In this document: one piece after another, positions 6,068-54,690 of the stretch
How positions within the stretch are numbered: position 1 is the stretch's first letter
How the letters are laid out: each line of letters opens with the position of its first letter
DNA from: an uncultured Candidatus Saccharibacteria bacterium
Lineage (GTDB): Bacteria > Patescibacteriota > Andersenbacteria > UBA10190
Length of the DNA: 64,000 bases
Direction of reading: 5' to 3'
Assembly (NCBI GenBank): GCA_964371255.1
Contig: CAYJKV010000001.1
Location: 32,573 to 96,572, forward strand
Notes under the pieces: generated by a model
What the model was told of the DNA's origin: nothing
Database searches by the model: none
The model's input: the letters and a program-made list of their open reading frames with translations, nothing else
Made by a program: the position numbers and the translations under genes

Positions 6068-8284
6068 ATGGCATGGATTAAGTGGCTATCAGGTCTGGCG
6101 GTCGGCGTCGTCGTCCTTCTTTTGTTATTGAGCCCAGTCAAATATTATCGGACGGTGAGTGAAGGAACGGATGTGTATGAAGCGCATTATGTTTTATATG
6201 GCGACCGGATACAGGAACAAAGAGTGCAAATAGATCATGAGTTAGTGGGGATAGGAGCGATAGCAGTAGATTTCCGCCGCTCGCAGAACTTGAAACCACT
6301 GGAAGTGACAGTGCGGACGCTGGATGGAGAGATAGTGTCTCGGGGAAAAATTTCTCCCGACAAGGTAGCAGACGATAGCTTCGTCTGGGCTGAATTGAGC
6401 GAGAGGGTAGAACGCCGGGGCGAGGTAGTTATTGAATTCAAAGCACCACAGGCGGAAGTGAAGAATCCGGTGGGGCTACGTTTTGAAAAGGAGAGTGGGC
6501 ACGTAGCGTTGGGGCTGCTGGAGAGGGTGTCGTTAGCCCAGAGAACTGTGATTTGGACACAAGATCATCCGGACAGAGCGTTAAGGCTATGGCTGGTGGT
6601 CACGGGCGGATGTTTAATAGCGCTTATTTTGAGCTTGGCTGGCATACAAAGAAGGATAGGCAAATTGAGTGTAACTACTTGGCTGATTATTGGACTGGCC
6701 ATTATTACATTGTTAGTGCGAATTAGGACGGCGGTGCAGGTGGAAAGCGTATTTGGCGGAGATGCTTTTAACTATTTAATTCAGAGCCAGGCTTGGTTGG
6801 CTGGTGACAATCCATTTGCGGAGGAATTTAGAAGAAAGGCGCCATTTTTACCATTTTTGTTATTACCGGGGTGGCTGGGACTGATTGATCCGATCGTGTG
6901 GGGAAGAATTATTAGCATGATCGCGGCAGCGGGAGCGGTAGTGATGCTGCCCCGATTGTTAATGTTTTTTCAAATACCGCGTCAATTGGCGCTGGGGGCA
7001 GGATTATTGTTGGCTGTTAATAGAAATTTTTGGTGGGAGTCGGTGCATGGTTTGGCTAATACTTTGTATGCCGCGCTGATAGTGGGGGCAGTGTATGCAT
7101 TTATGCTGCACCGCAAGAAATATGGCAGATATTTAGTTGGGGTATTGGTGGGATTGACGACATTAACGCGATGGGAGGGAGGAGCAGTCGCGGCAGTACT
7201 GTTGCCAGCGGTGTGGATTTGGCATCGATTAAATATTAAAACAATTATTTATAGTGGCTGGCCGGCGTTAGTTTTGGTGGCAGTTCCTTTTGTCTTCTGG
7301 CCAATCACTGGTGAAACTGGCATGCGAACTGTGGCTGATATCGCGGGTGACGGGGGACTGAAACTGGCTTATTCATGGGGCGATTTTGTCGGCAACCTGG
7401 AAGGGCTAGAGCTTTTCTTGGGAAGAAACTGGATTTTGGTGGAAGGGGTGGGTGAGCAGTTGGGGTGGCTGGCGGGTGGTTTGGCGAGTGGTCTAGTTTT
7501 AGGCTTCTGGCACCGGAAAAAATACTGGATTTATAGCGGACTGGTGAGATTTCTGCCTTATGGGCTGATAATTATTTTATTGGTCGTATTAGCGGGCAGT
7601 TCGCGGGAGAGCTACAAATACCTGACGATGGTTTTGACGGCACTGACGGGGGCGGGCTGGGGAGCAAGTCTCGTGATCAAACCGAAATTTAGTATACCGG
7701 TGGGCCTAATGCTGATTGGTCAAGTGTTGGTGATAACCATGATATTGCCGAAGTCGAGATATTATTTACAGTTGATTCCCTTCTTATGTGCGGGGTTGAT
7801 ATTTGGCTTGTGGATGATCAGCGATTGGCGGCGGTCATCTGTAAGCCGAGTGGGCACGATTTTGTTGGTCGGAGTTTTCTCGATGATGGTTTATTTGGAC
7901 AGTGCGCGGGCGATGCCCGGCACGATAAGCGGCTATAATGAGAAATCCGGCAATCATACGGTCGTGACGCAAGCGTGCAAATACTTATTAGACAAGCCAG
8001 GAAATGTGGGAGTGGTTGAAGAAAGCGATCTGCCGGCACGGGTTTACTTAACTTTAGAGCGGACGAGAATTTTTCCCATCGAATGGGCAGAGAATATGGA
8101 AGATTTAACCGATGAGGAGATTTATAGGTGGCTCGAGGAATTTAATATCAGCTACATGATCGAGACAACTGCTCAACCAGTGTTTGATATAGTTGAACGG
8201 CACCCGGATGATTTTGAGTTTCTGAAGAAATTTAGCAGCCGGTACACGGAAGAGGAAGCGACGGTATATCGGGTAAAAAAATAG
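6068..8284 (+). CDS. Large polytopic membrane protein (738 aa, more than 12 TM segments plus a C-terminal soluble domain). Possibly a GT-C-type glycosyltransferase.
   Basis: Many hydrophobic segments. Convergent with a GT4 glycosyltransferase. No catalytic motif confidently identified. Confidence 0.45.
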   Translation: MAWIKWLSGLAVGVVVLLLLLSPVKYYRTVSEGTDVYEAHYVLYGDRIQEQRVQIDHELVGIGAIAVDFRRSQNLKPLEVTVRTLDGEIVSRGKISPDKVADDSFVWAELSERVERRGEVVIEFKAPQAEVKNPVGLRFEKESGHVALGLLERVSLAQRTVIWTQDHPDRALRLWLVVTGGCLIALILSLAGIQRRIGKLSVTTWLIIGLAIITLLVRIRTAVQVESVFGGDAFNYLIQSQAWLAGDNPFAEEFRRKAPFLPFLLLPGWLGLIDPIVWGRIISMIAAAGAVVMLPRLLMFFQIPRQLALGAGLLLAVNRNFWWESVHGLANTLYAALIVGAVYAFMLHRKKYGRYLVGVLVGLTTLTRWEGGAVAAVLLPAVWIWHRLNIKTIIYSGWPALVLVAVPFVFWPITGETGMRTVADIAGDGGLKLAYSWGDFVGNLEGLELFLGRNWILVEGVGEQLGWLAGGLASGLVLGFWHRKKYWIYSGLVRFLPYGLIIILLVVLAGSSRESYKYLTMVLTALTGAGWGASLVIKPKFSIPVGLMLIGQVLVITMILPKSRYYLQLIPFLCAGLIFGLWMISDWRRSSVSRVGTILLVGVFSMMVYLDSARAMPGTISGYNEKSGNHTVVTQACKYLLDKPGNVGVVEESDLPARVYLTLERTRIFPIEWAENMEDLTDEEIYRWLEEFNISYMIETTAQPVFDIVERHPDDFEFLKKFSSRYTEEEATVYRVKK

Positions 8285-8329: not shown

Positions 8330-9505
8330 TTAGGCCGGTTTTTTGCTGAGATCGGTATAGAGGTCAATGAATTGCTGAATGACAGTATCGATGGCGTGGT
8401 TTTGAATACGTGCCAGACTGGCTTGGCCCATGCGCCGTAAAAGTGGCTGGTCGGCAAGCAGACGAAGTAAATGCCGGGCAAACTGCTCGTGGTCATGGGC
8501 TGAGAATAATAAGCCATTCTCGTCAGCAGCAACGAGCTCAGGAAGGGCTACGGAGTTGGCCGCGACAACGGGAAGACCGCAGGCCATGGCTTCCATGGTG
8601 GCGATGCTTTGTAATTCGGCGGTACTGGCGGTAGTGAATATTTGGGCTGAGCAGTAGAGGGCAGGCAGATCCGGGGCGGGAACAAAACCGGTAAAAGTAA
8701 CAGCCTGGTCGATTTTTAATCGCCTGGTAAGGTGACGCAGGTGATGAGCGGCGCTGCCATTTTTCGAGCCGACGACGACCAGGTGGATAGGCCTGGTTTG
8801 GAGCACTTGGGCCACTGTGTGCAGGATGGTGTCGATGTTTTTTTCTTTATCTAAGCGGCCAACGGTGATGATGGTGGGCAAGTTAGGCAGCCGGTATTTT
8901 TTTCTAACCGCTGGCGTGTCGTAGTGGGGATTAAATTTTTTCAGATCAATGCCATTGGAAATAACTTGAACAGGTTTGGTGAAACCGTGTTCGATCAGAA
9001 GATTAGCAGCAGTTCGGGTAGGTGTGGTGACGGCGTCCAAGGAAGCAAAGTAATTAATGCATTGCTGCCACAGTTTAGCGTTGAGACGGGCTTCGACAGC
9101 CGGGGGGAGGCGCAAATAATGAGTTAAGTTATCCGGCATAAAATGGTTAGTACCAACGATGGGGATACGTAACTTTCTGGCCTGACGAACGACGGCCTGG
9201 GAAAGCCAGAAATGTCCCTGGGCATGAATGATATCTGGTTGAAACTGTTTGATGGCAGAAGCGATGGTTCGCTGATTCAGGCGCGGTACGGCGATGCGCA
9301 TATTGTTGATATACAAGGGAACTGAACGTATGCCGAGGGTAGTAACTTTGTCTTGTAGATATTTTTCTTGGCGGCCTGATCGGGAGGGGGCGATGACCTG
9401 GACCTGATGCGAGTGCTCAGTCAGTCTTTGGGCTAAACGATAGGTGAAATAAGCAGCGCCATTGACGTGCGGCGGGTAAGTATCGGTGACAATAAGAACT
9501 TTCAT
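8330..9505 (-). CDS. Glycosyltransferase family 4 (GT-B fold).
   Basis: N-terminus MKVLIVTDTYPPHVNGAAY; C-terminal EAMACGLPVVA...E motif (E-x7-E). Confidence 0.8.
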   Translation of the reverse strand: MKVLIVTDTYPPHVNGAAYFTYRLAQRLTEHSHQVQVIAPSRSGRQEKYLQDKVTTLGIRSVPLYINNMRIAVPRLNQRTIASAIKQFQPDIIHAQGHFWLSQAVVRQARKLRIPIVGTNHFMPDNLTHYLRLPPAVEARLNAKLWQQCINYFASLDAVTTPTRTAANLLIEHGFTKPVQVISNGIDLKKFNPHYDTPAVRKKYRLPNLPTIITVGRLDKEKNIDTILHTVAQVLQTRPIHLVVVGSKNGSAAHHLRHLTRRLKIDQAVTFTGFVPAPDLPALYCSAQIFTTASTAELQSIATMEAMACGLPVVAANSVALPELVAADENGLLFSAHDHEQFARHLLRLLADQPLLRRMGQASLARIQNHAIDTVIQQFIDLYTDLSKKPA

Positions 9506-9618
9506 AATTGAGATGACAATTCAGTAAATAAAGAGGTGCGATGACTATAGTAACTATACTGCTTGCAAGCAAGGAAGATAGGTTGGGCGCCGCAGCGTGA
9601 GGGGAAAGAGCGAGCCAG

Positions 9619-10092
9619 TTGGGACTGATACGGACTGGATGTTTACGTGAGGTCCCTTATACTAGAGGTATGGCGGGATGGATTGTTTATGCACTTTTGT
9701 CGGCGGCTTTCGCGGGGCTGGTCGCGATTTTTGGAAAAATTGGCATCAAGGACATTGATTCCACTTTAGCGACCACGGTCCGGTCGGTTATTATGGCAGG
9801 GTTTTTACTCATCACAGCCTTGGTGCTTGGCAAAGTGAAGTATCTATCTTCGATTGATAATAAAGCGTTATTCTTCATCACATTGTCCGGAATAGCCGGG
9901 GCGTTGTCGTGGTTAATGTATTTTGTGGCGTTGCGAACAGGTCCGGCGTCCGGTGTAGCGGCAGTCGATCGGTTAAGTGTTGTGTTTGTGCTAGTCTTCG
10001 CGGTGCTTTTTCTGGCCGAGCAGCTAACGTGGCGAACGGCTATGGGTGCGGGATTTATCACGATTGGTGCGATCTTGATGACTATTCGTTAG
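9619..10092 (+). CDS. EamA-like 4-TM transporter (DMT superfamily half-size protein). True start probably the internal Met (MAGWIVYALL).
   Basis: Four hydrophobic helices of ~140 aa with an EamA-like pattern. Confidence 0.55.
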   Translation: MGLIRTGCLREVPYTRGMAGWIVYALLSAAFAGLVAIFGKIGIKDIDSTLATTVRSVIMAGFLLITALVLGKVKYLSSIDNKALFFITLSGIAGALSWLMYFVALRTGPASGVAAVDRLSVVFVLVFAVLFLAEQLTWRTAMGAGFITIGAILMTIR

Positions 10093-10202
10093 CGAAAGGA
10101 GCGGTAAAAACTAATAAACACAAATCATCCCATTAATGATGGGTGTGATTAGCGTTAAATTGGCAGAGAAGGTGTAATAATAAGTGTCTGCTCAAGCTTG
10201 GG

Positions 10203-11300
10203 GTGGTAAGAACAGATAGATTGTTTTATGGTGAGATGACTATGTTCAATAACTCGATCAAAGAAAAATTACCAGAATTATTAGCGGAACTAGAGAAGCA
10301 GCCGCTACGGGTATGTGTTGAGCCAACCAATGCATGTAACGCGTTGTGTTCTTTTTGCGCGAACAAAGATTGCAAGCGTGAGCGCAAGATTATGAATTTT
10401 GAGCAGTACAAAAAAACCTTAGCACAAATTATGGAGACGGGCAGTAAGGAGCTAAAGTTCACACCAATTATCGGTGATCCGTTCGTAGACCCGGGTTTTT
10501 TAGAAAAGGTTAAATATGCTAAATCGCTTAATTATTTCGAAGTAATATACACGTTTTCCAACATGATTGGAGCTAGTTATGAAAAAGCGGACGAGATAGT
10601 TAATAGCGGCTTAACTCAGTTGATGATATCGACTTGTTTACAGGGCCGGGAAGATTATAAGCGCATCTACGGGGTTGATCGATTTGATCAAGCCATGAAA
10701 AATATTTTGACACTACTGGAAGCGAATCATAAATTTGGCAACCCGCTAGACATCAGCCTTTGGTTAAGGCATGACAAGGGCTTTAATTTAAAAGCCAGTC
10801 CTTTCTATCAGAAAATGCTGCGGTATACTAGTAAGATTAATGTGCTTAATGACGATTATGACAACTGGTCCGGCAAAGTTAAGGAAGAGGATTTACCGAA
10901 AGGCCAGAAGTTCAAGAAGAAAAAAGACAATACTTGGCCGTGCGCGCAATACTACAATGGTTTAGTGGTCGGCCCCTCTGGAGAAGTGGGAATGTGTTGG
11001 GCGAGAGATACTGACTTTGAGCTACTGGTGGGCAACATTAACGATCAGAATTTTAAAGAAATATGGCAGGGCGAAAAAGTGCAGGGATTACGTCAACAGT
11101 GGTTAGCTGGGAAGATACCTTATCCCTGCAGCGACTGCTTGCAGTATTGTTCAGTGCTAGAGCACTCACTCGTGCAAAAATATATTTTAAGACACCTGTG
11201 GAAATATCCACAGTTTTTGCCCCAGGTCGCCCGGTCGAAGTGGCTGGCGCTAGTGGAAAGAGTCTTAGGGATGTGGCGACAATGGCGGCAGATTGGCTAA
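10203..11300 (+). CDS. Radical SAM enzyme with a C-terminal SPASM/twitch-type auxiliary Fe-S domain.
   Basis: CNALCSFC (Cx3Cx2C) near the N-terminus. C-terminal cysteine array WPCAQYY...GMCW...YPCSDCLQYC typical of SPASM. Confidence 0.75.
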   Translation: MVRTDRLFYGEMTMFNNSIKEKLPELLAELEKQPLRVCVEPTNACNALCSFCANKDCKRERKIMNFEQYKKTLAQIMETGSKELKFTPIIGDPFVDPGFLEKVKYAKSLNYFEVIYTFSNMIGASYEKADEIVNSGLTQLMISTCLQGREDYKRIYGVDRFDQAMKNILTLLEANHKFGNPLDISLWLRHDKGFNLKASPFYQKMLRYTSKINVLNDDYDNWSGKVKEEDLPKGQKFKKKKDNTWPCAQYYNGLVVGPSGEVGMCWARDTDFELLVGNINDQNFKEIWQGEKVQGLRQQWLAGKIPYPCSDCLQYCSVLEHSLVQKYILRHLWKYPQFLPQVARSKWLALVERVLGMWRQWRQIG

Positions 11301-11901: not shown

Positions 11902-13119
11902 ATGACCAGACGGATAATTGGTAGGGCGATAATAGGCGGAGTGGTTGCGCTAATAGTGTTAGTGTCAGTGGCGCTGTGGTTTGCGTGGGATGGTCTGGCG
12001 GTAGAGAGGTGGATAACAAAAATGAGTCCGGATTTAATGGCCTGTGGGGTAGAAATGGTGCTGTTCAGCGAATGGCCAGCGGACAAGGATAAAGTATCGG
12101 CGATAACACCATTAGGTAGCATGGAGCCTGAAAGCGGAATGGTGTTTCCTCGTGATCGCCTGTTGTGGCATACGGGGGGTAAGGGTGGAGCGAACAACGG
12201 TGATCAGTCGATGCCCGTACAGATAGTGGCACCGGGTAATGGGTGGATAACTAAAGTCGAGGAGATTGAGTGGTGGTCTGGTAACAAAATGACAGAGCGG
12301 GATTTTGTGCTTTATTTTTCCCCCTGTCGAGAAGTGGAAGCTAAATTCAGTCACATACAAATGCTGGCTACCAATATCGATGAGCAGACGAAAGGGATGT
12401 GGAGTGAACAAGTTAGTGATCAGGCAGGTGCGGTAACTGTTCGATCAAGAGAGGCAAAAGTCAAGATTGCAGTGCGGGCAGGGGAGGGTATGGGTCGAGT
12501 TGGTGGAACAGAGCGCTCCCAGGCTTTTGATTGGGGTATGACAGACGAGAGAGGCAAAACCTTTAATCTTGCGAGTGCAACGCCTAAGGAATATCAAGCA
12601 GATTACACAGTTTGCCCGTTGGATTACTACGGGGGAGGGGTGCGGCGAGAATTGGAGAAATTGTTGGGAGATGGTCAAAAAACTAGAGAAATCATGCCGG
12701 TTTGTGGCTGGATAGACAAAAATATCGTGGGCACTTTGCAAGGCAGGTGGCGAGCAGAAAAGACGGCCCCGGGCGTGGGGGAGGATCAGCATGTGGCACT
12801 GGTGCATGATGAGATTGAGCCGCAGAAGCCTGTAATTAGCATGGGGACATCACTGCGGAAGAGCGGTTTGAAGGCCGGCTTGTATTATTTTCAAACAATG
12901 GAGACGGGCTATGTAAACAGAGATTTTGGCACGGTGACGGAGCAGGGGCAAGTTTATTGTTATCAGGGGATACGCGATGACCGGGGACAAATCGTACAAA
13001 GAATCGTGTTAATTGAACTGGTGGACGATAAATCTCTGCGCATGGAAGCGAGGCCGGGTTTTAGCTGTGCGGCCAATAATTATAATTTTTCTGACAGGAT
13101 GACAGCTTTTGAGCGTTAA
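11902..13119 (+). CDS. Hypothetical membrane-anchored protein (N-terminal TM, ~370-aa soluble domain), immediately upstream of the hydrogenase small subunit.
   Basis: TM segment IIGGVVALIVLVSVALWFAW. No family recognised. Only a 5-nt gap to the next gene. Confidence 0.4.
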   Translation: MTRRIIGRAIIGGVVALIVLVSVALWFAWDGLAVERWITKMSPDLMACGVEMVLFSEWPADKDKVSAITPLGSMEPESGMVFPRDRLLWHTGGKGGANNGDQSMPVQIVAPGNGWITKVEEIEWWSGNKMTERDFVLYFSPCREVEAKFSHIQMLATNIDEQTKGMWSEQVSDQAGAVTVRSREAKVKIAVRAGEGMGRVGGTERSQAFDWGMTDERGKTFNLASATPKEYQADYTVCPLDYYGGGVRRELEKLLGDGQKTREIMPVCGWIDKNIVGTLQGRWRAEKTAPGVGEDQHVALVHDEIEPQKPVISMGTSLRKSGLKAGLYYFQTMETGYVNRDFGTVTEQGQVYCYQGIRDDRGQIVQRIVLIELVDDKSLRMEARPGFSCAANNYNFSDRMTAFER

Positions 13120-13124
13120 CAGGC

Positions 13125-13646
13125 TTGGATAAATTTTATGTTATGATAGGGCACATGAAGGAACAAACCAAAAAATTGCGGGTGGGATGGTTTACCTTCA
13201 CTTGCTGTGAGGATTCGACAATAGTTTTTACAGAAGTTTTAAATGATTATTGGCAGGAATGGCGCAAGCGCATTGATTTTGTGCACGCGAGGATTTTGCA
13301 GGCAAAAAACTCGGAGGGGGAGTTAGATGTAGCATTTATTGAAGGGGCAATTTCCTCGGCAGAACAAAAGCAAAGATTAGAGAAGATTAGAAAGCAAGCG
13401 CAGTGGGTGGTGGCCGTGGGATCATGTGCGGTGGTGGGTATGCCCTCGGCGCAGCGTAACCAATTTGACGAAAAAACTAAACAAGAAATTGGCTTTATTT
13501 TAGAAAGATTTCATCACTTAGAGCACGTCATGTCTGTCAAGGACGTGGTCAAGGTGGAAGCGGAGTTGCCAGGTTGTCCGATGGATCCGAAGCAGTTTGT
13601 GGCGGTGGTCAATAAGGCGCTGGAGCATTTTGGCGTTGTTTCTTAA
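13125..13646 (+). CDS. [NiFe]-hydrogenase small subunit, NuoB/HoxY-like, with only the proximal [4Fe-4S] cluster.
   Basis: Four-Cys pattern FTCCEDS ... VGSCAVVG ... PGCPMDP (NuoB/Oxidored_q6 signature). No Tat signal. 173 aa. Confidence 0.75.
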   Translation: MDKFYVMIGHMKEQTKKLRVGWFTFTCCEDSTIVFTEVLNDYWQEWRKRIDFVHARILQAKNSEGELDVAFIEGAISSAEQKQRLEKIRKQAQWVVAVGSCAVVGMPSAQRNQFDEKTKQEIGFILERFHHLEHVMSVKDVVKVEAELPGCPMDPKQFVAVVNKALEHFGVVS

Positions 13647-13660
13647 AGCAAAGCACTAAT

Positions 13661-14956
13661 ATGCATACGATAGATTTAGACTTGTCCTTGGATGAGGTGA
13701 CAAAAGTGGAAGGAGCAGCAAAATTAGCAGTGAAGGTTCGCCGAGGCAAGGTTGAAAAATGCACTTTCGCGATTACTGAATATAAAAGATTTTACACGCA
13801 GGCCATGCGGGGAAAAATGTATAAGTCACTGCCGCAGCTGCTAATGAGGATTTGCGGTACTTGTTCTAACGCTCACCTGCTGGCTTCCATTGAGTCTTGT
13901 GAAAAGGCGCTGGGATATGACGTATCAGGACAAACTAAGATTATGAAGAATTTGACGGTAGATGGTTTATTAATTCGGGATCACGCGTTACATCTGTATT
14001 TATTCGCTTTGCCAGATCTGTATGGCAAGGACAATTTCCTGTCTTTAGACGACCAGGACGAGGAGCAACACCAGCATCTGCATGATGCTTTCGCCATCAA
14101 AGCAGCAGGGAATTATTTAGCGCAAATTATTGCTGGCCGCAGCGTCCACGCGATCAATCCGGTGATTGGCGGTTTTCTAAAAGTACCGTTGCAGGAAGAA
14201 GTAGATGAAGCAATTCGGTCGTTGGTTGAGATCAGGCCGGCGGTGCTGCGGTTAATTAATACGTTTGCCAAGTGTGACTGGCATTTTGATCGGCAGACTA
14301 ATTATATGGCGTTAGTGAGCAATCCCTATGGCTATTTGGAAGGACAAATTAAAGACAATCATGGCAAGGTTATTCCGGAAGATCTATACCGTGATCATCT
14401 GGAACGGGTGGTACTGCCTTACTCCCAAGCGTCTGGCTATACGTATCAGGGGGAGTCTTTTATGGTGGGAGCGCTGGCCCGAATGAATTTGTCCAAAGAA
14501 ACATTGCACGCAGACACTAAAAAGGATGCGGCTAAAGCGTTAGAAAGGTTTCCGTCCACTAATATTTATGACAATAACCTGGCTCAGGCGATTGAGATAT
14601 TAAATGCCATGGACACGGCCGAGTATCTGCTTAGAACAACTAAGTTTAAAGCAGAGAAACCAGCCGAACCGACAAAAAAAGAGGGTGTAGGCGTGGGGGT
14701 AGTGGAAGCACCAAGGGGGACATTATATCATCGGGTTGAAATTGAGACGGATGGCAAAGTGTCGCAAGGCACTATCGTCGTACCAACCGGGCAGAATCAG
14801 ATCAATATCGAACAGGACTTAGCGAGTGTAGCTGAGCAGAAGATAAGCGAGGGGAAAAACAAGGATGAAATTCAATTTGAGATGGAAAAACTGATCCGAG
14901 CTTATGATCCGTGCATGAGCTGCGCGGCGCATTTTTTGGAAGTTAAATGGAACTGA
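13661..14956 (+). CDS. [NiFe]-hydrogenase large (catalytic) subunit.
   Basis: N-terminal L1 motif RICGTCSNAH (RxCGxCxxxH) and C-terminal L2 motif DPCMSCAAH (DPCxxCxxH). 431 aa. Confidence 0.9.
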   Translation: MHTIDLDLSLDEVTKVEGAAKLAVKVRRGKVEKCTFAITEYKRFYTQAMRGKMYKSLPQLLMRICGTCSNAHLLASIESCEKALGYDVSGQTKIMKNLTVDGLLIRDHALHLYLFALPDLYGKDNFLSLDDQDEEQHQHLHDAFAIKAAGNYLAQIIAGRSVHAINPVIGGFLKVPLQEEVDEAIRSLVEIRPAVLRLINTFAKCDWHFDRQTNYMALVSNPYGYLEGQIKDNHGKVIPEDLYRDHLERVVLPYSQASGYTYQGESFMVGALARMNLSKETLHADTKKDAAKALERFPSTNIYDNNLAQAIEILNAMDTAEYLLRTTKFKAEKPAEPTKKEGVGVGVVEAPRGTLYHRVEIETDGKVSQGTIVVPTGQNQINIEQDLASVAEQKISEGKNKDEIQFEMEKLIRAYDPCMSCAAHFLEVKWN

Positions 14957-24774: not shown

Positions 24775-24960
24775 GTTTACTGTTAGTCAGCGATGGCTGA
24801 CGAGACAAGAATGAATTTTAAAAATTTGTCATTAGTTTGGTGAAGCGGGTGTAAATCCCGCGCTGTGCCGCAACGGTGTTCCAGCCAAAAAGCTGGTCAG
24901 TCCGATCCTAAATTAATGGAGAGAGTGCTTCCGAGCAGGAGTTAAGAGTGATCAGTAAGA
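24775..24960 (+). promoter_or_regulatory. Cobalamin (B12) riboswitch aptamer.
   Basis: Core GGTGAAGCGGGTGTAAATCCCGCGCTGTGCCGCAACGGTG matches the conserved GGTG..AA.TCC...GC.G.CCCGCaAC.GT cobalamin core. Followed by agccaaaaagctgg and a terminator. Downstream genes are B12-related. Confidence 0.6.
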
Positions 24961-24961
24961 C

Positions 24962-24991
24962 TTCCAGGCTCGGTTAGCAGGAAGTTTTTTT
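24962..24991 (+). terminator. Riboswitch expression-platform terminator (acttcc/ggaagt stem followed by T7).
   Basis: Hairpin plus ttttttt immediately before the DUF4430 gene start. Confidence 0.45.
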
Positions 24992-24992
24992 A

Positions 24993-25547
24993 TTGACTAA
25001 TGATATGAAGATTGAAGTATTGAGTAAGCTACTTAAGGCCAAGACCGAATTGATCATCTTGGCGATATTGGTCCCGCTAGTGTTAACGCTGGGCGTGATA
25101 TTGGCGAAGTGGTCTACGTGGCAGGAGATAGGTGTGCCGGCACCGTCGACGACATCGCCAGGGTTAGAAGAAAATCAAGGGAGCGCGGCGGTGGAGAAAA
25201 CAATAACGTCGATGGAGTCGGAGGTAGCCAAGCAGGCAGTCTCTTTGGCAGTGGAAAACGGCGCGGACAAGACCACGGTACTGGTGCCGGTGGCGGGAAC
25301 CGCGTCGGTGGCAGAGGTGCTGCAGACAGCAGTGGCGGAGAACAAAATAACGATGGAGTATAAAGATTATGGCGCGGCGATGGGCATATTGATTGAATCG
25401 ATAAATAATATTGCGAACAATAGCGGACAGAAACGGTATTGGTACTTATACGTGAATGGTCAGCTATCACCGGTGGGAGCAAGCCAAGCACAAGTTGAAG
25501 CTGGTGATGTCATAACCTGGAAGTATGAAGAGGAGAAAGATGAGTAA
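24993..25547 (+). CDS. DUF4430-domain protein (transcobalamin beta-domain-like) with an N-terminal membrane anchor. Probable start is the ATG at 25005.
   Basis: C-terminal GQKRYWYLYVNGQLSPVGASQAQVEAGDVITWKY matches the DUF4430 signature (W.Y.VNG...G.....GD.I.W.Y). Confidence 0.7.
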   Translation: MTNDMKIEVLSKLLKAKTELIILAILVPLVLTLGVILAKWSTWQEIGVPAPSTTSPGLEENQGSAAVEKTITSMESEVAKQAVSLAVENGADKTTVLVPVAGTASVAEVLQTAVAENKITMEYKDYGAAMGILIESINNIANNSGQKRYWYLYVNGQLSPVGASQAQVEAGDVITWKYEEEKDE

Positions 25548-27594
25548 AAACAAGAAAAAATGGCTGGGAAGCGTTGGGGCGATAACGTTAATAGTGGGTT
25601 TTGGTTTGCTAGCTGGCCAGATGGTGGCAGGGGCGACAGAGGGGACCAAAGTTCAGATGAGGGTGGAAGGGCAGACAGAACGCTTGTTTGAAGGAGAAGT
25701 GACGATCGGAGATTGCATTGCACAGGATGATGGTGGCACGGAACATTCGTTGTCGGGGGTGGCACTATGCGGGTTGGTTGACATGGCAAATAGCGAATCC
25801 ATGGCGCTTAGTTTGCAGGACTTTGGCTTTGGATTATTTGTGGCTGGCATAGGCAGTGATATCACACCGGCGGATTGGTCAAGAAGCTGGTCATTTTGGG
25901 TTAATGAGGAACCAGCCGCGGTCGGGGCAGATACGTACCCAGTCATGGAGGGGGATGAGATATTATTCGCTTTCAGCGGATACCCGACTGTACCTTTGCG
26001 GGTAACTGCGCCGGAGCAGGTGGCGGCAGGCGTGCCGTTTACGGTGGCCGTCGAGAAAAAAATCGGTGAGTATGATGCCAACTATAATTGGCTGGGACAG
26101 TGGGTGCCGGCTAGCACGATCCGGTTATGGATAGGTGATAATGAAGCGGTAATTGATGAAGAAGGGAAAGCGACGGTGAAGATAGATAGTCCGGGAATAG
26201 TTGATTTATGGGCGGAAGGTGACGGTTTAGTAAGAAGCGCGCGCCGGCCAGTTATAGTGGAAGAGGGGCAAGAAACAGTAGGGCCGACAAATACGCCTGC
26301 ACCGACAATTTCTCCACTAGTATCTCCGATAGTAAGTCCGACGATAAGTCCGACACCCTCTAGTAGTGTGACACCAGAGCCGGTGATAACGGTAGCGCCG
26401 CCCAGTCCGACGCCAGCAGGCGGTAAGCTGCTGATTGACGAAGAACGAAAGAGAGCGGCGAGGGCAGCAATTAACTATCTAAGCAGCCAGCAGGGCGCGG
26501 ATGGAAAAATTGAAGGTGATCTGGTAACAGCTTGGAGCGCGATCGCTTTTGCCGCAGATGGACAGCGGGGAGACACTGTTAAAGGGCCAGGCGGGTCTTT
26601 GTGGGCTGGATTAGCGGCGGCCGAATTATCCAGTGCCACCGATATCGAAAGACAGATAATGGCGGTGGCAGCGACCGGTGGCAATCCGCGAGATTGGCAA
26701 GGCAGAAATCTGGTTCAGGAACTGAGGGGGTATTTCATTGGAGGACAGGTAGGAGAGGTGACTATTATTAACGATGATATTTTTGGAGTGTTAGCCTGGT
26801 TGGCGGCTGGTGAACCGGTTGACTCGAGTGAAGTAGAGCAGACAATAAGAACGGTTATAGCCAATCGGGACGATAATGGAGCGTGGGGGTCCATTGATTT
26901 GACGGCAGCGGCGGTGCAAGGTTTACGGGAATACGCGAAGCGAGGCGGATTGATCAACGTAAATCCAGTGATTGAAGAAGCACGGTCATATTTGCGAAAC
27001 CACCAGGACGAATACGGGGGATGGGGGAAAAACTTAGCTAGTACAGCCTGGGGCATACAAGCTGTCGTGTCATTAGGAGAGAACCCGGCAGAGTGGCCAA
27101 ATCCGGAGGGAAAAACAGGCTGGCAAGCGTTGGCACGATACCAAAATGATAACGGTGGTTTTGGCTGGCAAGCGAATCAAGATGTCTCCAGCTTTATGAC
27201 GGCTTACGCGGTGCCGGCTCTGTTAGGGAAGTCATGGCCCATAACACCGGAGCAGGCGATAGAAAGTGAGACAAGCCTTGATGAAACAACAGAAGTAGGA
27301 TTGAAGGCGGTCCCCACAACCGCAATCGTCACTGCTTTGCCACTTAATCCAATGGTGGCTGGGATTCAAGCAGGAGACGAAGGTGAAATAAGCGGGCCAG
27401 GCGAAGTAGGTACGAGGGAAGAAACAGTTCAAGCTGACAGTAGCGCACAGACCGAGCGTGGGCCTGGCGACAGGGAGGTTGTGAATAAATTTATTCAACC
27501 AAATGAGCGTGATTGGCAATTCGTTTTTTCCGTGTTCAGTCTGGCTAATATTGGGATTGGTGTTACAGTAGCTAGATTGTTTATAAAGATATGA
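25525..27594 (+). CDS. Surface-anchored multidomain protein: signal/TM, DUF4430-like domain, P/S/T linker, prenyltransferase/squalene-cyclase-like alpha/alpha-toroid repeats, C-terminal TM anchor.
   Basis: WSFWVNEEPAAVGADTYPVMEGDEILFAF (DUF4430-like). Repeats DDNGAWGS, DEYGGWGK, NDNGGFGW (QW/terpenoid-cyclase-type). Linker PTISPLVSPIVSPTISPTPS. C-terminal hydrophobic FVFSVFSLANIGIGVTVARLFI. Confidence 0.6.
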   Translation: MKRRKMSKNKKKWLGSVGAITLIVGFGLLAGQMVAGATEGTKVQMRVEGQTERLFEGEVTIGDCIAQDDGGTEHSLSGVALCGLVDMANSESMALSLQDFGFGLFVAGIGSDITPADWSRSWSFWVNEEPAAVGADTYPVMEGDEILFAFSGYPTVPLRVTAPEQVAAGVPFTVAVEKKIGEYDANYNWLGQWVPASTIRLWIGDNEAVIDEEGKATVKIDSPGIVDLWAEGDGLVRSARRPVIVEEGQETVGPTNTPAPTISPLVSPIVSPTISPTPSSSVTPEPVITVAPPSPTPAGGKLLIDEERKRAARAAINYLSSQQGADGKIEGDLVTAWSAIAFAADGQRGDTVKGPGGSLWAGLAAAELSSATDIERQIMAVAATGGNPRDWQGRNLVQELRGYFIGGQVGEVTIINDDIFGVLAWLAAGEPVDSSEVEQTIRTVIANRDDNGAWGSIDLTAAAVQGLREYAKRGGLINVNPVIEEARSYLRNHQDEYGGWGKNLASTAWGIQAVVSLGENPAEWPNPEGKTGWQALARYQNDNGGFGWQANQDVSSFMTAYAVPALLGKSWPITPEQAIESETSLDETTEVGLKAVPTTAIVTALPLNPMVAGIQAGDEGEISGPGEVGTREETVQADSSAQTERGPGDREVVNKFIQPNERDWQFVFSVFSLANIGIGVTVARLFIKI

Positions 27595-28202
27595 CGAGAT
27601 CGCAAACAGAAAAAATAATATGGTCGGTGTGTTTGATAGTAGTGGTTTTAATGATTAGGACTAGCGATCATATGCCCAACGTGGTGCCGATCGCAGCGAT
27701 CGCTTTATGGGCAGGGGCTGTTTGGCCGATGCCGGGAGCGATGGTCGTCCCATTGGTTGCGATGTTGCTGGCCGATATGGTTATCGGCCTGGCCAGCTGG
27801 CCGGTCATGTTAGCGGTTTATCTGTCATACGGTCTGATTGCCGGGATGGGCCGGTGGGTGAAGGAACGGTTTAGGCCGGCGAAAATTGTCGGCACGGCCA
27901 TGTTGGGGGCCACGGTATTTTATTTGATAACGAATGCGGCCGTGTGGTGGTTTGACGGCTTGTATCCGCGCACGATGACTGGTTTGATCCTGTCTTATTT
28001 TTACGCTTTGCCATTCTATCGCAGTACGTTACTAGGCGATATTGTTTATACTGGCAGTTTGTTTGTAGTGTGGCATAGTTGGCCGGCGGCAGTTGGTTGG
28101 GTGACCAAAAAGCTAACAGGCAAGACGCAGTTCGAGAGTTTGGCGCTCAAGACAGACATGAAACTGCAGAAGGCAGAAATAAGGAGAGAAAAGGTTAATT
28201 AA
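27591..28202 (+). CDS. Polytopic membrane protein (6 TM, 203 aa); possible ECF-type S component for vitamin uptake. Translationally coupled to the preceding gene.
   Basis: Hydrophobic profile and size typical of ECF S components. Start overlaps the upstream stop. Position within the B12 cluster. Confidence 0.4.
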   Translation: MTRSQTEKIIWSVCLIVVVLMIRTSDHMPNVVPIAAIALWAGAVWPMPGAMVVPLVAMLLADMVIGLASWPVMLAVYLSYGLIAGMGRWVKERFRPAKIVGTAMLGATVFYLITNAAVWWFDGLYPRTMTGLILSYFYALPFYRSTLLGDIVYTGSLFVVWHSWPAAVGWVTKKLTGKTQFESLALKTDMKLQKAEIRREKVN

Positions 28203-28207
28203 TTATA

Positions 28208-28237
28208 TTGACGGTGACTAAAGCGGATTGGTATACT
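28208..28237 (+). promoter_or_regulatory. Sigma-70-type promoter: TTGACG, 18-nt spacer, TATACT, upstream of nrdJ.
   Basis: Near-consensus hexamers read directly. Confidence 0.45.
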
Positions 28238-28323: not shown

Positions 28324-30654
28324 TTGGGTTATTTTGTAACGTTTACCCTTAATAAAAATAAAAACATGAACAGCTATTTCAACATAACGAGAGTGGATCT
28401 ACAAAATTTAGCTAAGATTAAAAAACGAGACGGACAGGTAGCGCCGTTTAATTTTGCCAAGATTTCGCAGGCGGTACTGAAGGCCATGACAACTACTGGC
28501 GAGGGGAATGAAAAAGACGCTGATTTAGTGGCGCGGAAAGTGGTTCGGGATTTACTTAAATTACGAAGAGCCAGTCAGGAAAAAAGTTTTCTGCCCAATG
28601 TGGAAATGGTGCAGGATTTAGTGGAAGAAGAGCTGATGTTGTTAGATTTCGTGAAGACCGCCAAGTCATATATTTTATACCGAGAAAAAAGGGCGTCACT
28701 GCGGGCGGAAGTGGGAGAAGTGCCGGAAGACGTAAGGGAGTTAGTAGCAGAAAGCAAAAAATATTTTAGAAATTCACTGGCCGAGTTTGTTTACTGTCGG
28801 ACCTACGCGCGCTGGATTGATAAGGAAGGACGGCGCGAAACATGGATTGAAACGGTGCAGCGGTTTATTGACTATATGAAGGATAATTTAGGCAAGAAGC
28901 TGACAGAGAACGAGTACGAAGAAGTCCGGCAGGCAATTTTAAAGCATGAAGCAATGCCGTCGATGCGACTGATGCAATTTTCCGGCCCGGCAGCGAAGGC
29001 GACCAATGTGTGCGCCTATAATTGCTCTTATATTGCCCCGTCGAAAGTGCGGGATTTTTCCGAGATTATGTATGTGTTAATGTGCGGGGCCGGTGCCGGC
29101 TATTCAGTGGAAAGCCAGAACATCCAAGCGTTGCCGCAAATCAAGCATCAGTCGGGTAAGAAAGCGGCTAGCCAAGTGGTGGATGACAGTAAAGAGGGTT
29201 GGGCCAATGCCTTGGAGCTGGGTATGAATACCTGGTTCAAAGGAGAGGATATAGAGTTTGATTTGTCCAAACTGCGACCAGCGGGGGCTCGTTTGAAGAC
29301 GATGGGCGGCAAAAGCTCGGGACCAGAGCCGCTCCGGCAAGTATTGGAGTTCGCACGCGATAAGATATTAGCCAAGCAAGGTAAGCGATTATCTAATTTG
29401 GACGCCCATGATATTATTTGCAAAATTGGCGAGTGCGTAGTCGCCGGCGGGGTAAGGCGGAGCGCATTAATATCCCTATCAGATTTGGACGATATTGAAA
29501 TGAGAGACGCCAAGAAAGGCCAGTTCTTTATGACCGAGCCGCAACGCAGCATGGCTAATAATTCGGCGGTGTATAATGAGAAACCGACAGCGGAACAATT
29601 TTTTGATGAATGGATCGCTTTGATGAAGAGCGGATCAGGTGAGCGAGGCATTTTTAATCGCGGTTGTCTTAGCAGTACGTTGCCCAAACGCCGGATTGAT
29701 TTATTAAGGAAGAAAAAATGGCCGCAGTGGGGAACCAATCCGTGCGGCGAAATTATATTGCGATCCAAACAGTTCTGTAATTTATCGGAAGTGGTAGCGA
29801 GGGCGGAAGATACGGAAGAGACGCTAATGCGAAAAGCTCGGATCGCCGCGATCTTGGGCACTTATCAGTCGACGCTGACTAACTTTCCTTACTTGTCGAG
29901 CGAATGGAGAAAGAATTGTGAAGAAGAACGATTGTTAGGCGTTTCGATTACCGGTCAGTGGGATTGTCCGAAGGTGCGAGAAGCGGAAATGTTGAACAAG
30001 ATCAGGGAAGAGGTGTTAAAAGTAAATCGAAAGTATGCTAAGCGGTTTGGAATTAATGCATCATCGTGCGCGACTTGCGTGAAGCCGTCCGGGAACGTAT
30101 CGCAGATGACGGATTGTGCGTCCGGTATGCATCCCAGACATGCCAAGTATTATATCCGACGGGTGCGGGTATCAGCGACCGATGCGCTGTTTAAGATGTT
30201 GCGTGACCAGGGAGTGCCATATCATCCTGAGGTGGGCCAGTCATTAGAGGACGCGACTACCTACGTATTGGAATTTCCGGTCAAAGCGCCAGCGGGAGCT
30301 ATCCTCAAGAATGACCTGACCGCGTTGGAGCAATTGGAGCATTGGAAAAAGGTAAAAATAAACTATACAGAGCATAATCCTTCAGTGACAGTGTCGGTGG
30401 GTAATGACGAGTGGGTAGCCGTGGCAAATTGGCTTTATGAAAATTGGGAGATTGCCGGCGGATTATCTTTCTTGCCTCGGTCAGATCATGTGTATCAATT
30501 AGCGCCTTATGAAGAAATTGATGAAAAGAGATACGAGGAACAAGTGAAGCGACTAGGTCAGATTGACTATTCCAAATTAGTTTCTTATGAACGTGAGGAT
30601 GAGCTAGATGTTAAGACGGAACTGGCTTGCGTATCGGGCACGTGTGAAATTTAG
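28324..30654 (+). CDS. nrdJ: Adenosylcobalamin-dependent (class II) ribonucleotide reductase with an N-terminal ATP-cone. Likely start is the internal Met (MNSYFNIT).
   Basis: ATP-cone N-terminus; active-site TNPCGEI (class II PCGE motif); 776 aa monomeric type. Confidence 0.85.
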   Translation: MGYFVTFTLNKNKNMNSYFNITRVDLQNLAKIKKRDGQVAPFNFAKISQAVLKAMTTTGEGNEKDADLVARKVVRDLLKLRRASQEKSFLPNVEMVQDLVEEELMLLDFVKTAKSYILYREKRASLRAEVGEVPEDVRELVAESKKYFRNSLAEFVYCRTYARWIDKEGRRETWIETVQRFIDYMKDNLGKKLTENEYEEVRQAILKHEAMPSMRLMQFSGPAAKATNVCAYNCSYIAPSKVRDFSEIMYVLMCGAGAGYSVESQNIQALPQIKHQSGKKAASQVVDDSKEGWANALELGMNTWFKGEDIEFDLSKLRPAGARLKTMGGKSSGPEPLRQVLEFARDKILAKQGKRLSNLDAHDIICKIGECVVAGGVRRSALISLSDLDDIEMRDAKKGQFFMTEPQRSMANNSAVYNEKPTAEQFFDEWIALMKSGSGERGIFNRGCLSSTLPKRRIDLLRKKKWPQWGTNPCGEIILRSKQFCNLSEVVARAEDTEETLMRKARIAAILGTYQSTLTNFPYLSSEWRKNCEEERLLGVSITGQWDCPKVREAEMLNKIREEVLKVNRKYAKRFGINASSCATCVKPSGNVSQMTDCASGMHPRHAKYYIRRVRVSATDALFKMLRDQGVPYHPEVGQSLEDATTYVLEFPVKAPAGAILKNDLTALEQLEHWKKVKINYTEHNPSVTVSVGNDEWVAVANWLYENWEIAGGLSFLPRSDHVYQLAPYEEIDEKRYEEQVKRLGQIDYSKLVSYEREDELDVKTELACVSGTCEI

Positions 30655-30656
30655 CA

Positions 30657-31190
30657 ATGAGCGTCTTGTACACTGGCCGCGGTGATGACGGTACCACGAC
30701 TTTGTACGGAGGGCCGAAGCGTCTGGGTAAGGACTCCGATGTGATTGAAGCGTTGGGCAGTGTTGATGAGATAAATTCCTTTATTGGTTGGTGTCGGACG
30801 CAGATGGAAGAGACGGCATTGCAAAAAATATTGGAAGATGCCCAACAAGTATTGTTTATTCTACAAGCTGAAATAGCGGGAGCGAACAAAGCGGTGCGCC
30901 GGGAAGATGTGCAGCGGATGGAGACAGTAATAAAGAAACTTAGCGCGGAATTGCCGTCAATCAAAGGGTTTGTGCTAGCCGGAGAGACGGCAGCCGCAGC
31001 TATGCTAGATGTGGCGCGGACCATCGCGCGGCGGGCAGAACGGGTGATAAATAAAGGGATGAAGAAAAAAGAACTGATAGTGGGGGAAGGAGCCTTGGCG
31101 TATTTGAACCGTCTATCTAGCCTGCTCTATGTCTTGGCGAGGGTACAAAATTTCCGGAATAACAAAATAGAAAAAACGCCCAAGTATTGA
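30657..31190 (+). CDS. ATP:cob(I)alamin adenosyltransferase, PduO type.
   Basis: N-terminal YTGRGDDGTTTLYGG...R signature; 177 aa. Start 3 nt after the nrdJ stop. Confidence 0.85.
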   Translation: MSVLYTGRGDDGTTTLYGGPKRLGKDSDVIEALGSVDEINSFIGWCRTQMEETALQKILEDAQQVLFILQAEIAGANKAVRREDVQRMETVIKKLSAELPSIKGFVLAGETAAAAMLDVARTIARRAERVINKGMKKKELIVGEGALAYLNRLSSLLYVLARVQNFRNNKIEKTPKY

Positions 31191-51184: not shown

Positions 51185-51242
51185 TAGTTGTTCTTTTGAG
51201 GAGCAGGTTGTAATAAGCATTTTAAGGAATTAGTTTGAATAT

Positions 51243-52034
51243 ATGTACAAGTTAAGAAAATTTTATCCACCAGGTTTTAATCCCCAGCAATATTGGGCAG
51301 ATAGATACGCACAGGAGCATATTGCTGGCCGCAGCAGCGATGAGTTTCGACGGCAGGATTTTTGGCCGCTCATGAAGCAGCATTTACCCCGAGATAAGAA
51401 AATACTGGACGCTGGTTGCGGCGTTGGGGGATGGATTATATTTTTAAAGGAGGAGGGTTTTGATGTCGAGGGTATTGATAGCGCGGCGCGGACGGTGCGG
51501 GCAATGACGGAATATGACCCTGAAATAAAAGTGAAGATAGCAGACGTAGATGCTATCCCCTATCCAGATAACTTGTTTGGGGGAGTGGTCGCAGTGGGCG
51601 CCCTAGAATACGTGGAGGATAGAGTGGATGAGGCACTTAGGGAAGTTAATCGGGTGCTTGGGCCGGAGGGTGTATTTCTTCTGGAGGTACCGATTACAAA
51701 CTTATTGCGGCGCCTATTTTATATTCCGCTAAAAGAGCTGGAAAGACGGATAAAGGGATGGCAGGGTAATGAACCTGTCTTTGCCAATTATTTTTTTGAT
51801 CGACATGAGCTGGTCAGGAAGCTCAAAGCGACTGGTTTTTCTATTATCACAGAGCAGCCGCACGAGTTGCCAGACAGTAACAGTCATTATGGTTTATACG
51901 TTGATTGGAAATGGTTAAGAGGCAGCGAGCCGTATCATCTGAATTTTCTTGGGTTGGCCATCAAAAAATTAGCCAACCTTATTTCACCATGGATTGCTTC
52001 GACCGGTATGGTGATTGTCGCAAAGAAGCGTTGA
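51243..52034 (+). CDS. Class I SAM-dependent methyltransferase.
   Basis: Motif I ILDAGCGVGGW; motif post-I DVEGID. Confidence 0.7.
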   Translation: MYKLRKFYPPGFNPQQYWADRYAQEHIAGRSSDEFRRQDFWPLMKQHLPRDKKILDAGCGVGGWIIFLKEEGFDVEGIDSAARTVRAMTEYDPEIKVKIADVDAIPYPDNLFGGVVAVGALEYVEDRVDEALREVNRVLGPEGVFLLEVPITNLLRRLFYIPLKELERRIKGWQGNEPVFANYFFDRHELVRKLKATGFSIITEQPHELPDSNSHYGLYVDWKWLRGSEPYHLNFLGLAIKKLANLISPWIASTGMVIVAKKR

Positions 52035-52059
52035 CTAATTTTTGTTTGATAACATCAGA

Positions 52060-52155
52060 TTAAAAACCTCCGCCAAAGACAGCGAGACCGAGAGTTAGTG
52101 CAATGAAAACAAGAAGAGCGAGGGTTAACCACTGCATCGTATTTTGCTCATTCAT
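52060..52155 (-). CDS. Unannotated small hydrophobic peptide (31 aa, single TM): MNEQNTMQWLTLALLVFIALTLGLAVFGGGF.
   Basis: ATG preceded by GGGAGGTGATCC. Same SD/spacer architecture as the acidic peptide at 32114. Confidence 0.3.
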   Translation of the reverse strand: MNEQNTMQWLTLALLVFIALTLGLAVFGGGF

Positions 52156-52327
52156 GAAGGATCACCTCCCGTAGTTTTTCTATAAAAGATAGATAACTAG
52201 TAATTACTATTTTACCTTAATTCGTTTGAAGTTGCGAGTAAAGCCTGGGAGTTTTTTGGGAGTGTTCGTTTTAGCAAGAACCAAGGCAGTGCAGCGCCAA
52301 ACAAGATGGAGTATACTTGACTTTTAG

Positions 52328-54073: not shown

Positions 54074-54149
54074 AGTTTAAGCGTAGCATATTGGGAACAA
54101 TGTTTAGAGGAGATCGGGAAGATGGCAGAGAACATCAAAAAAGAAGTAA

Positions 54150-54656: not shown

Positions 54657-54690
54657 TAAGTAAGTAGGAATAATGTTTCTCTAACATAGC

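Follow-up and report, generated by a model that had tools for sequence, protein, structure and literature searches.

A riboswitch-linked locus of Patescibacteria with transcobalamin-like surface proteins and a probable role in corrinoid capture and uptake

Bacteria of the candidate phyla radiation (CPR) have tiny genomes and obtain cofactors from their neighbours, and their acquisition of vitamin B12 is essentially undescribed. The locus considered here lies in a stretch of 64,000 nucleotides (the window; positions 32,573 to 96,572 of contig CAYJKV010000001.1, assembly GCA_964371255.1) from an uncultured Candidatus Saccharibacteria bacterium that GTDB places in the Andersenbacteria of the Patescibacteriota. 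A cobalamin riboswitch is followed by three open reading frames (ORFs), which encode a membrane-anchored SLBB/DUF4430 protein (ORF1), a surface protein that joins an SLBB domain to an alpha/alpha toroid (ORF2), and a DUF6580 membrane protein with the fold of an energy-coupling factor (ECF) S-component (ORF3), and then by genes for the class II ribonucleotide reductase (RNR) NrdJ and a PduO-type cobalamin adenosyltransferase. The locus is likely to serve corrinoid (B12) capture, uptake and use in Andersenbacteria-like Patescibacteria. A role in capture and uptake, as predicted from homology and gene context, is well supported, and the extracellular corrinoid capture proposed in an earlier sequence-only reading of this DNA is still the best account of it. 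The mechanistic steps that go past domain identity and gene linkage are ones that we infer.

Relatives of ORF2 were collected by one peptide-pattern scan of species-representative genomes, which gave 254, and the best 80 of these 254 were analysed as loci L001-L080. All locus counts below refer to this set of 80, whose hosts are nearly all Patescibacteria, with a few metagenome-assembled genomes (MAGs) that carry an Actinomycetes label. The ORF2 homologues form 51 clusters, with Andersenbacteria, Parcubacteria and other CPR assemblies as their sources.

The cobalamin riboswitch ahead of the genes, already pointed out in the sequence-only reading, was recovered with a custom covariance model, R1, which was trained on 24 homologous upstream regions and gives the element in the window 98 bits. 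The same reading had proposed a survey of riboswitch linkage in homologous loci, and an R1 element lies on the coding strand directly 5′ of the module in 63 of the 80. An Rfam scan of the whole window at the gathering threshold gave no match, and a permissive scan aligned the full-length RF01482 model of the adenosylcobalamin (AdoCbl) riboswitch to positions 24814-24945 (E=4.4e-6) at 41.2 bits, under its gathering score of 50 bits. Nine of the 21 R1-positive loci that were checked have, at the same coordinates, an element that passes the gathering threshold of RF01482, RF01689 or RF00174, which confirms the identity of the riboswitch. As these figures illustrate, CPR cobalamin riboswitches often score under the curated Rfam thresholds. 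A regular expression finds the aptamer core (a GGUG..UCC hairpin, GCCGC.ACGGU and the AGUCCG B12-box region) in the window and, ahead of the homologous genes, in about 27 loci, and the P4-type main hairpin covaries across 50 homologues (GC 25, CG 10, AU 9, UA 5). Downstream of the aptamer, a hairpin (24960-24985) and a U7 tract (to 24991) end two bases ahead of the TTG start of ORF1, and RNA folding pairs the conserved CCGAGCAGG segment with this terminator-like hairpin region. A simple terminator scan did not list the leader hairpin because its loop exceeds the limit of the scan.

Two further features of these leaders were observed. The CPR elements have in common a 3′ hairpin motif, (U)CCCGAGCAGG(A), that is almost invariant; a kissing loop and an anti-terminator are candidate roles for it. 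In L047, a second riboswitch-like element (R1, 68.6 bits) occurs downstream of pduO, directly 5′ of an ORF of 560 aa (9005-10687; region 8821-10687). This soluble-looking ORF has a Cys-rich C-terminal tail and is without Pfam or PDB sequence matches, and its position makes it a putative B12-regulated gene in a Patescibacteria MAG.

The three genes behind the riboswitch are consecutive and partly overlapping, as had been reported, with ORF1 and ORF2 sharing 23 nt and ORF2 and ORF3 sharing 4 nt, and all genes of the locus are co-directional (Table 1). ORF1 consists of a transmembrane (TM) segment (residues ~19-41), a linker and a C-terminal SLBB domain (~95-181) that matches Pfam DUF4430 (E=9.7e-18, 64.8 bits) and, weakly, the intrinsic factor (IF) beta domain directly (E=0.037, IF residues 308-367). 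ORF2 is laid out as a signal peptide, an SLBB domain (40-151), a beta-sandwich (157-246), a P/S/T linker (253-299), the toroid (300-580), a stalk (580-660) and a terminal TM helix (661-688). Its AlphaFold2 (AF2) model, with a predicted local distance difference test score (pLDDT) of 79, contains confident domains at 40-151, 157-246 and 300-580, and the linker and stalk are disordered in it. The SLBB domain of ORF2 scores 27.5 bits against Pfam DUF4430 (cutoff 23.8; E=4.5e-6). The sequence-only reading had assigned ORF1 a membrane anchor with DUF4430 at the C-terminus, and ORF2 a second DUF4430-like segment, an alpha/alpha toroid, a P/S/T linker, a signal peptide and a C-terminal TM anchor, and all of these were confirmed.

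An extracytoplasmic topology is read from the signal peptide, the anchor and the C-terminal TM segments of ORF1 and ORF2. The only cysteines of ORF2, C64 and C82 (window 25714-25770), both lie in the SLBB domain and are kept in the family consensus, which suggests a disulfide bond and is consistent with this location. A profile of the ORF2 family, built from 37 sequences and searched against PDB sequences, matched the IF beta domain through its N-terminal region (1.8e-3; IF 316-393), haptocorrin (366-433) and the transcobalamin alpha domain (9e-3). Searched singly with phmmer, ORF2 and ORF3 returned nothing useful from the PDB, and only profiles worked. No PLSDB plasmid matched ORF1 or ORF3 in tblastn searches, and a literature search on DUF4430 found what look like incidental mentions only, one per paper, and no bacterial role.

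The arrangement of SLBB domains and toroids differs among the 80 loci. One or two SLBB domains precede the toroid in the same protein in about 57 loci, toroid-only proteins occur in about 15, and the toroid-SLBB order known from transcobalamin occurs in four (L059, L062, L063 and L080). Of the 80 loci, 75 have a separate SLBB gene, placed immediately upstream of the toroid gene in 72; it lies downstream, not upstream, in L059, L062 and L080, and none was detected in L063. Because the architectures vary in this way, cis and trans pairing of alpha and beta domains are both plausible for the family, and trans pairing is feasible in the ~13 loci where a toroid-only protein has an adjacent SLBB gene. 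The sequence-only reading had described a surface-displayed, two-polypeptide analogue of transcobalamin. The surface alpha and beta parts are present, but ORF2 has an SLBB domain of its own, so that the system is not strictly split and that label fits it only in part; pairing in cis within ORF2 is as possible as pairing in trans with ORF1. ORF2 alone might then be a full transcobalamin analogue in cis, with ORF1 as an independent second binder or relay, a possibility that deserves attention while being less probable than not. It fits the SLBB domain inside ORF2, the ~57 relatives with one or two SLBB domains fused to the toroid and the four in toroid-SLBB order, and also the Lactobacillales loci described below, where two small SLBB proteins are paired and the toroid is absent, so that SLBB proteins can evidently work without one. 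It accords less well with the toroid-only relatives and their adjacent SLBB genes, which imply trans pairing, with the beta-sandwich and ~50-aa linker that lie between the SLBB domain and toroid of ORF2, and with the retention of the separate SLBB gene in 75 of the 80 loci.

ORF3 matches a single Pfam family, PF20221 (DUF6580; E=1.2e-36). Its AF2 model (pLDDT 85.6) is a multi-helix membrane fold corresponding to the six-helix ECF S-component, the type of membrane protein that the third gene had earlier been taken to encode. The top Foldseek matches in the PDB are BtuM with cyano- or hydroxocobalamin (8c7p, 8ovv; TM scores 0.63/0.71, probability 1.00, 18-20% identity), followed by FolT, RibU, ThiT and PanT. 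Profiles of the DUF6580 family, in versions of 15 and 127 sequences, have CbrT (6fnp_A) as their sole PDB match (E=8e-5 and 3e-6, respectively), and hhalign aligns the family with CbrT at 80% probability over TM1-3, with the common motif R...PNVxPV...M..(D/N)..GF. CbrT relatives carry PF12822/PF07155 rather than DUF6580, and for this reason ORF3 is classed, by sequence comparison, as a distant relative of CbrT and not as a member of its family.

In BtuM, H28, D67, Y85 and R153 are conserved and the invariant Cys80 is the cobalt ligand (PMC6072759). The ORF3 family has no sequence-level match to BtuM and no conserved Cys in either 15 close or 148 broader relatives, and membership in the BtuM family was ruled out for want of a residue matching Cys80. 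H27, D62, Y77 and R144 are highly conserved in the DUF6580 family (D62 is invariant, and R144 is present in 108 of 148 relatives) and, judged by spacing only, may correspond to the four conserved BtuM residues. With E<=1e-3 as the limit, DUF6580-like proteins fall into at least 5,491 representative clusters, and a literature search on DUF6580 found no papers.

Around the SLBB and toroid genes, a DUF6580 gene is found in 43 of the 80 loci and is adjacent downstream in 38, often with an overlap. NrdJ occurs in 14 loci and PduO in eight; no further conserved neighbour families were found in the 80 loci, and specifically no ABC or ECF genes.

Several observations weigh against the assignment of the locus to corrinoid capture and uptake. 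The RF01482 match at 24814-24945 is below its gathering score, both the sequence and the fold of the toroid resemble class II terpene cyclases more than they do transcobalamin, and ORF2 of the window gives no match to Pfam Cobalamin_bind (PF01122). The AF2 model of ORF2 has a predicted template modelling score of 0.51, so the inter-domain arrangement is not fixed by the model. ECF A and T components are absent from the 64-kb window and from the conserved neighbours of the 80 loci, 37 loci are without a DUF6580 gene within 6 kb, and the homologous Lsa1836-1840 system of Lactobacillus sakei has been argued to import heme (10.1101/864751).

Given the resemblance to terpene cyclases, one alternative is that the toroid protein has an activity or ligand that has nothing to do with B12 and is merely a neighbour of the other genes; it could be a terpene cyclase, a prenyltransferase, a glycan-active alpha/alpha6 protein or a thioester trap. 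Its best sequence and fold matches are squalene-hopene and drimenyl-diphosphate cyclases, the family profile finds squalene-hopene cyclase in the PDB at 4.8e-24 through the QW-type repeats, and some databases name its relatives 'terpene cyclase/mutase family protein' or 'prenyltransferase/squalene oxidase repeat-containing protein'. Among 37 ORF2 relatives, Pfam matches are to SQHop_cyclase_C in 30, Prenyltrans in 16 and Cobalamin_bind in eight (best E 7.6e-6). For ORF2 itself, matches to squalene-cyclase-type families (E 0.017-0.05) and to TED are sub-threshold only. The profile searches that the sequence-only reading had proposed thus upheld DUF4430 in both proteins and left the squalene-cyclase families below threshold for ORF2, and the structural comparison proposed alongside them, made on ORF2 alone, yielded the expected alpha/alpha toroid, though one closer to terpene cyclases than to transcobalamin. 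The modelled fold fits a transcobalamin-like role and is not specific to it.

A role unrelated to B12 is nevertheless very improbable. The DVDDTA segment of squalene-hopene cyclase, which holds the DxDD motif (D374-V-D-D), aligns with SIDLTA in ORF2, and DxDD is absent from this site in every member of the ORF2 family, where (S/N)-(V/I)-D-(L/M)-T-A takes its place (in the broader consensus, (S/N/G/D)-(V/I)-D-(L/M/I)-T-A). The CGEQ thioester motif is absent in all 37 family members. Because DxDD is replaced family-wide and there is no thioester motif, both enzymatic and TED-like readings were rejected, the terpene cyclase or prenyltransferase on the missing DxDD together with the extracytoplasmic location and the thioester trap of the alpha2-macroglobulin/complement kind on the missing CGEQ. 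The tethering of ORF2 to the membrane outside the cytoplasm, the SLBB fusion and cobalamin riboswitch in most loci, and the Cobalamin_bind matches of eight of the 37 relatives also speak for a B12 role.

Capture of heme or another tetrapyrrole by the surface SLBB/toroid proteins and the S-component is suggested by the work on L. sakei, in which a two-polypeptide alpha (toroid) and beta (SLBB) pair lies next to an ECF S-component (10.1101/864751). This layout is the one seen in the toroid-only relatives with a separate SLBB gene among the 80 loci; the L. sakei operon differs from the window in having its own ECF ATPase and T component, and the toroid protein of the window also has an SLBB domain. 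For the systems described here, heme is a very remote prospect as the substrate, given the cobalamin-clan riboswitch directly upstream in 63 loci, the adjoining genes for an AdoCbl-dependent RNR and a cobalamin adenosyltransferase, and the B12 specificity of both CbrT and BtuM, the nearest solved relatives of ORF3.

The surface proteins might instead hoard or sequester corrinoids for competition or storage while ORF3 acts independently, which would suit the 37 loci where a riboswitch-SLBB-toroid unit has no DUF6580 gene nearby and the four (L074-L076 and L079) where the DUF6580 gene is grouped with nrdJ on the 5′ side of the riboswitch. This is improbable, as the DUF6580 gene is immediately 3′ in 38 loci, ORF2 and ORF3 overlap in the window, and repression by B12 suits uptake; uptake and hoarding can also coexist. 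The gene order in L074-L076 and L079 is DUF6580, NrdJ, (PduO), SLBB, toroid. Among these four loci, a riboswitch between the PduO and SLBB genes is found in L074 and L079 only, and in these two the putative transporter DUF6580 is outside the control of that riboswitch.

Table 1. Features of the corrinoid locus in the window (coordinates in nucleotides of the 64,000-nucleotide stretch).
Feature	Position	Strand	Description
Cobalamin-clan (AdoCbl-type) riboswitch aptamer	24810-24950	+	RF01482 sub-threshold; model R1 98 bits
Terminator-like hairpin and U7 tract	24960-24991	+	Predicted expression platform (OFF switch); contains AGGAAG ribosome-binding site
ORF1	24993-25547	+	184 aa, TTG start; membrane-anchored SLBB/DUF4430 protein, CbrS-like
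ORF2	25525-27594	+	689 aa; surface protein, SLBB and toroid
ORF2 alpha/alpha toroid domain	26422-27264	+	
ORF3	27591-28202	+	203 aa; DUF6580 membrane protein, ECF S-component fold, putative corrinoid translocator
Sigma-70-like promoter candidate, nrdJ-pduO	28208-28237	+	Consensus match only
nrdJ	28324-30654	+	776 aa as listed; AdoCbl-dependent class II RNR with ATP-cone
PduO-type cob(I)alamin adenosyltransferase	30657-31190	+	177 aa

The nrdJ gene, separated from ORF3 by a gap of 121 nt, matches the Pfam families ATP-cone, RNR_Alpha and RNR-II_ins_dom and scores 313.6 bits against TIGR02505 (RTPR, NCBIfam), slightly under the cutoff of 340. Its start is likely the ATG at 28366, and its product has 762 aa in the public gene call. 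The PduO gene matches Pfam Cob_adeno_trans (E=4.2e-46) and, at 165.6 bits, exceeds the cutoff of 108 for TIGR00636 (PduO_Nterm, NCBIfam). The candidate promoter ahead of nrdJ (TTGACG, an 18-nt spacer with TG, and TATACT) has 10 of 12 consensus matches, and nrdJ and pduO are therefore predicted to have, probably, a promoter of their own. In several relatives, nrdJ is upstream of the riboswitch or divergent from it and hence outside its control. Because of this placement and the promoter-like site, the riboswitch-regulated unit is probably ORF1-ORF3. The sequence-only reading, which had the same cluster supplying nrdJ and the adenosyltransferase, is right that both genes follow, but they are probably expressed from a separate promoter. 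It was also right that the window has no genes for cobalamin biosynthesis, as no cob or cbi genes were found in the 64 kb. The obligate scavenging that it derived from this goes further than a 64-kb stretch can show.

The concept of a bacterial transcobalamin-like scavenging system is not new. Burroughs et al. 2007 (PMC1796856) described a class of bacterial transcobalamin-like proteins in which an alpha/alpha toroid is joined to one or the other side of the SLBB domain. Inserts with an immunoglobulin fold occur in them, and the operons encode a further SLBB paralogue. The hosts, mainly Firmicutes and some archaea, are without B12 synthesis, the operons are linked to CbiO/CbiQ-type ECF genes, B12 scavenging was predicted as their role, and the class was proposed as the source of animal B12 carriers (PMC1796856). 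The window locus matches these operons in its SLBB domain with a toroid on the C-terminal side, its immunoglobulin-fold insert, its signal peptide and anchor, and its second SLBB paralogue (ORF1). Unlike them, it belongs to Patescibacteria, has DUF6580 as the partner and is preceded by a cobalamin riboswitch. Genes like those for the CbiO-like ATPase and CbiQ-like T component of those operons are absent from the 64-kb window and from the conserved neighbours of the 80 loci. The sole ABC ATPase in the window is paired with an ABC-2 permease. An ECF operon of the CbiMNQO/CbrTUV type was ruled out, there being no A or T genes nearby.

For CbrT, the only solved sequence relative of the ORF3 family, B12 transport has been shown experimentally and the ECF-CbrT structure is available (PDB 6FNP; Santos et al. 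2018, PMC5997447). The same paper cites a cluster of L. delbrueckii with the order nrdJ-cbrS-cbrT-pduO (PMC5997447). In a Lactobacillales-type locus (L084:2947-7095) with a CbrT relative of 67% identity, the order is NrdJ, DUF4430, DUF4430, CbrT, PduO, and the two small DUF4430 proteins are a lipoprotein (LTAC lipobox) and a protein with a signal peptide. Since the cbrS position is held there by two DUF4430 genes, cbrS is a DUF4430/SLBB gene, duplicated in L084. The Lactobacillales cluster thus resembles the window locus in combining a class II RNR, an extracytoplasmic DUF4430/SLBB protein, a membrane protein of S-component type and PduO. It differs in having no toroid protein and only small SLBB proteins, and a riboswitch search in L084 detected none. 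CbrT also differs from ORF3 in belonging to PF12822/PF07155, and it is known to use a shared ECF module, where ORF3 may either do so or be solitary. The window locus is, in these terms, the Lactobacillales kit apart from three features, namely a toroid-bearing SLBB protein, another S-component family and a riboswitch.

BtuM of Thiobacillus denitrificans, the best structural match to ORF3, has the six-helix S-component fold with cobalamin at the outer face (PMC6072759). Unlike ORF3, it has the Cys80 cobalt ligand and is found in Gram-negative bacteria together with BtuB. The mammalian carriers transcobalamin, IF and haptocorrin contain a beta domain of the SLBB/DUF4430 kind that is also present in ORF1 and ORF2. 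They are single soluble chains in which the N-terminal alpha domain is followed by the beta domain, whereas ORF2 has the reverse order, is anchored to the membrane, has its two domains separated by a beta-sandwich and a long linker, and is accompanied by an extra SLBB protein (ORF1). Sequence similarity between the mammalian carriers and the window proteins is marginal, and no receptor-binding function is implied for the latter. In functional logic, the locus resembles BtuG and BtuH of Bacteroides, which are riboswitch-controlled surface lipoproteins that bind corrinoids with high affinity and feed a membrane transporter. These proteins differ from those of the window in their beta-propeller folds and in their partner, the TonB-dependent BtuB of a diderm envelope.

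Taken at its most probable, corrinoid capture and uptake by this locus would proceed as follows. When intracellular cobalamin is plentiful, the leader would form the terminator hairpin and hide the ribosome-binding site, and ORF1-ORF3 would be switched off, as expected from the aptamer and the hairpin. When B12 is scarce, ORF1 and ORF2 would be displayed at the cell surface on flexible tethers, and a corrinoid would be enclosed by the toroid and an SLBB domain, either that of ORF2 or that of ORF1, by analogy with transcobalamin, IF and haptocorrin; the spare SLBB domain may act as a relay. The ligand would then pass to ORF3, as an S-component type related to CbrT and BtuM, and across the membrane. 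ORF3 may have as its partner an ECF module encoded elsewhere, or it may be solitary, as BtuM is. In the cytoplasm, PduO would adenosylate the cofactor for the class II RNR NrdJ, and the product would feed back on the riboswitch. This last step of use follows established knowledge of both enzyme families.

A more specific version holds that DUF6580 is a corrinoid translocator of Patescibacteria that works without an ECF module, similar to BtuM minus its Cys ligand, and is fed by a tethered, transcobalamin-like alpha/beta complex. This version is speculative and rather unlikely to be correct in full. If true, the system would be a monoderm/CPR counterpart of the BtuG-BtuB piracy of Bacteroides, and episymbionts could strip B12 from their hosts. 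The mixed layouts (toroid-only with SLBB, SLBB-toroid and toroid-SLBB) would then record the assembly of an architecture later acquired by animals.

The genes flanking the locus are ordinary housekeeping genes, and several other regions of the window were recorded in passing. Adjacent genes at 13125-14956 match the families of the small (Oxidored_q6) and large (NiFeSe_Hases) subunits of NiFe-hydrogenases and form a hydrogenase-like pair. A cluster at 49304-55575 comprises a NeuB-family synthase/AP_endonuc_2 fusion, a methyltransferase, a short-chain dehydrogenase, an aldo/keto reductase, a DUF386 protein and a cytidylyltransferase, and looks like a nonulosonic-acid (sialic-acid-like) sugar pathway. 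Two proteins, encoded at 6068-8284 (738 aa) and 11902-13119 (405 aa), have N-terminal hydrophobic segments and are without a Pfam match at E<=1e-4, and a Lamin Tail Domain protein (PF00932, E=2.9e-15) is encoded at the window edge (18-764).

The novelty implied by the sequence-only reading was overstated, as the concept had already been published: it was predicted in 2007, the split pair was described in L. sakei, and the same parts make up the Lactobacillales cluster. No new principle is revealed, and the function is a long-standing prediction. What is new is the breadth of the system in Patescibacteria, its tight coupling to a riboswitch and the link of DUF6580 to CbrT and BtuM; a literature search found no paper that joins Patescibacteria, cobalamin and riboswitches. 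The findings suggest roles for two Pfam families of unknown function, with DUF4430 as CbrS/SLBB and DUF6580 as a CbrT-like S-component. The many natural alpha/beta variants are material for testing the proposal of 2007 in which the B12 carriers of animals descend from scavenging proteins of bacteria. Together, the window locus and the related loci suggest that surface capture of B12 under riboswitch control is common in Patescibacteria.

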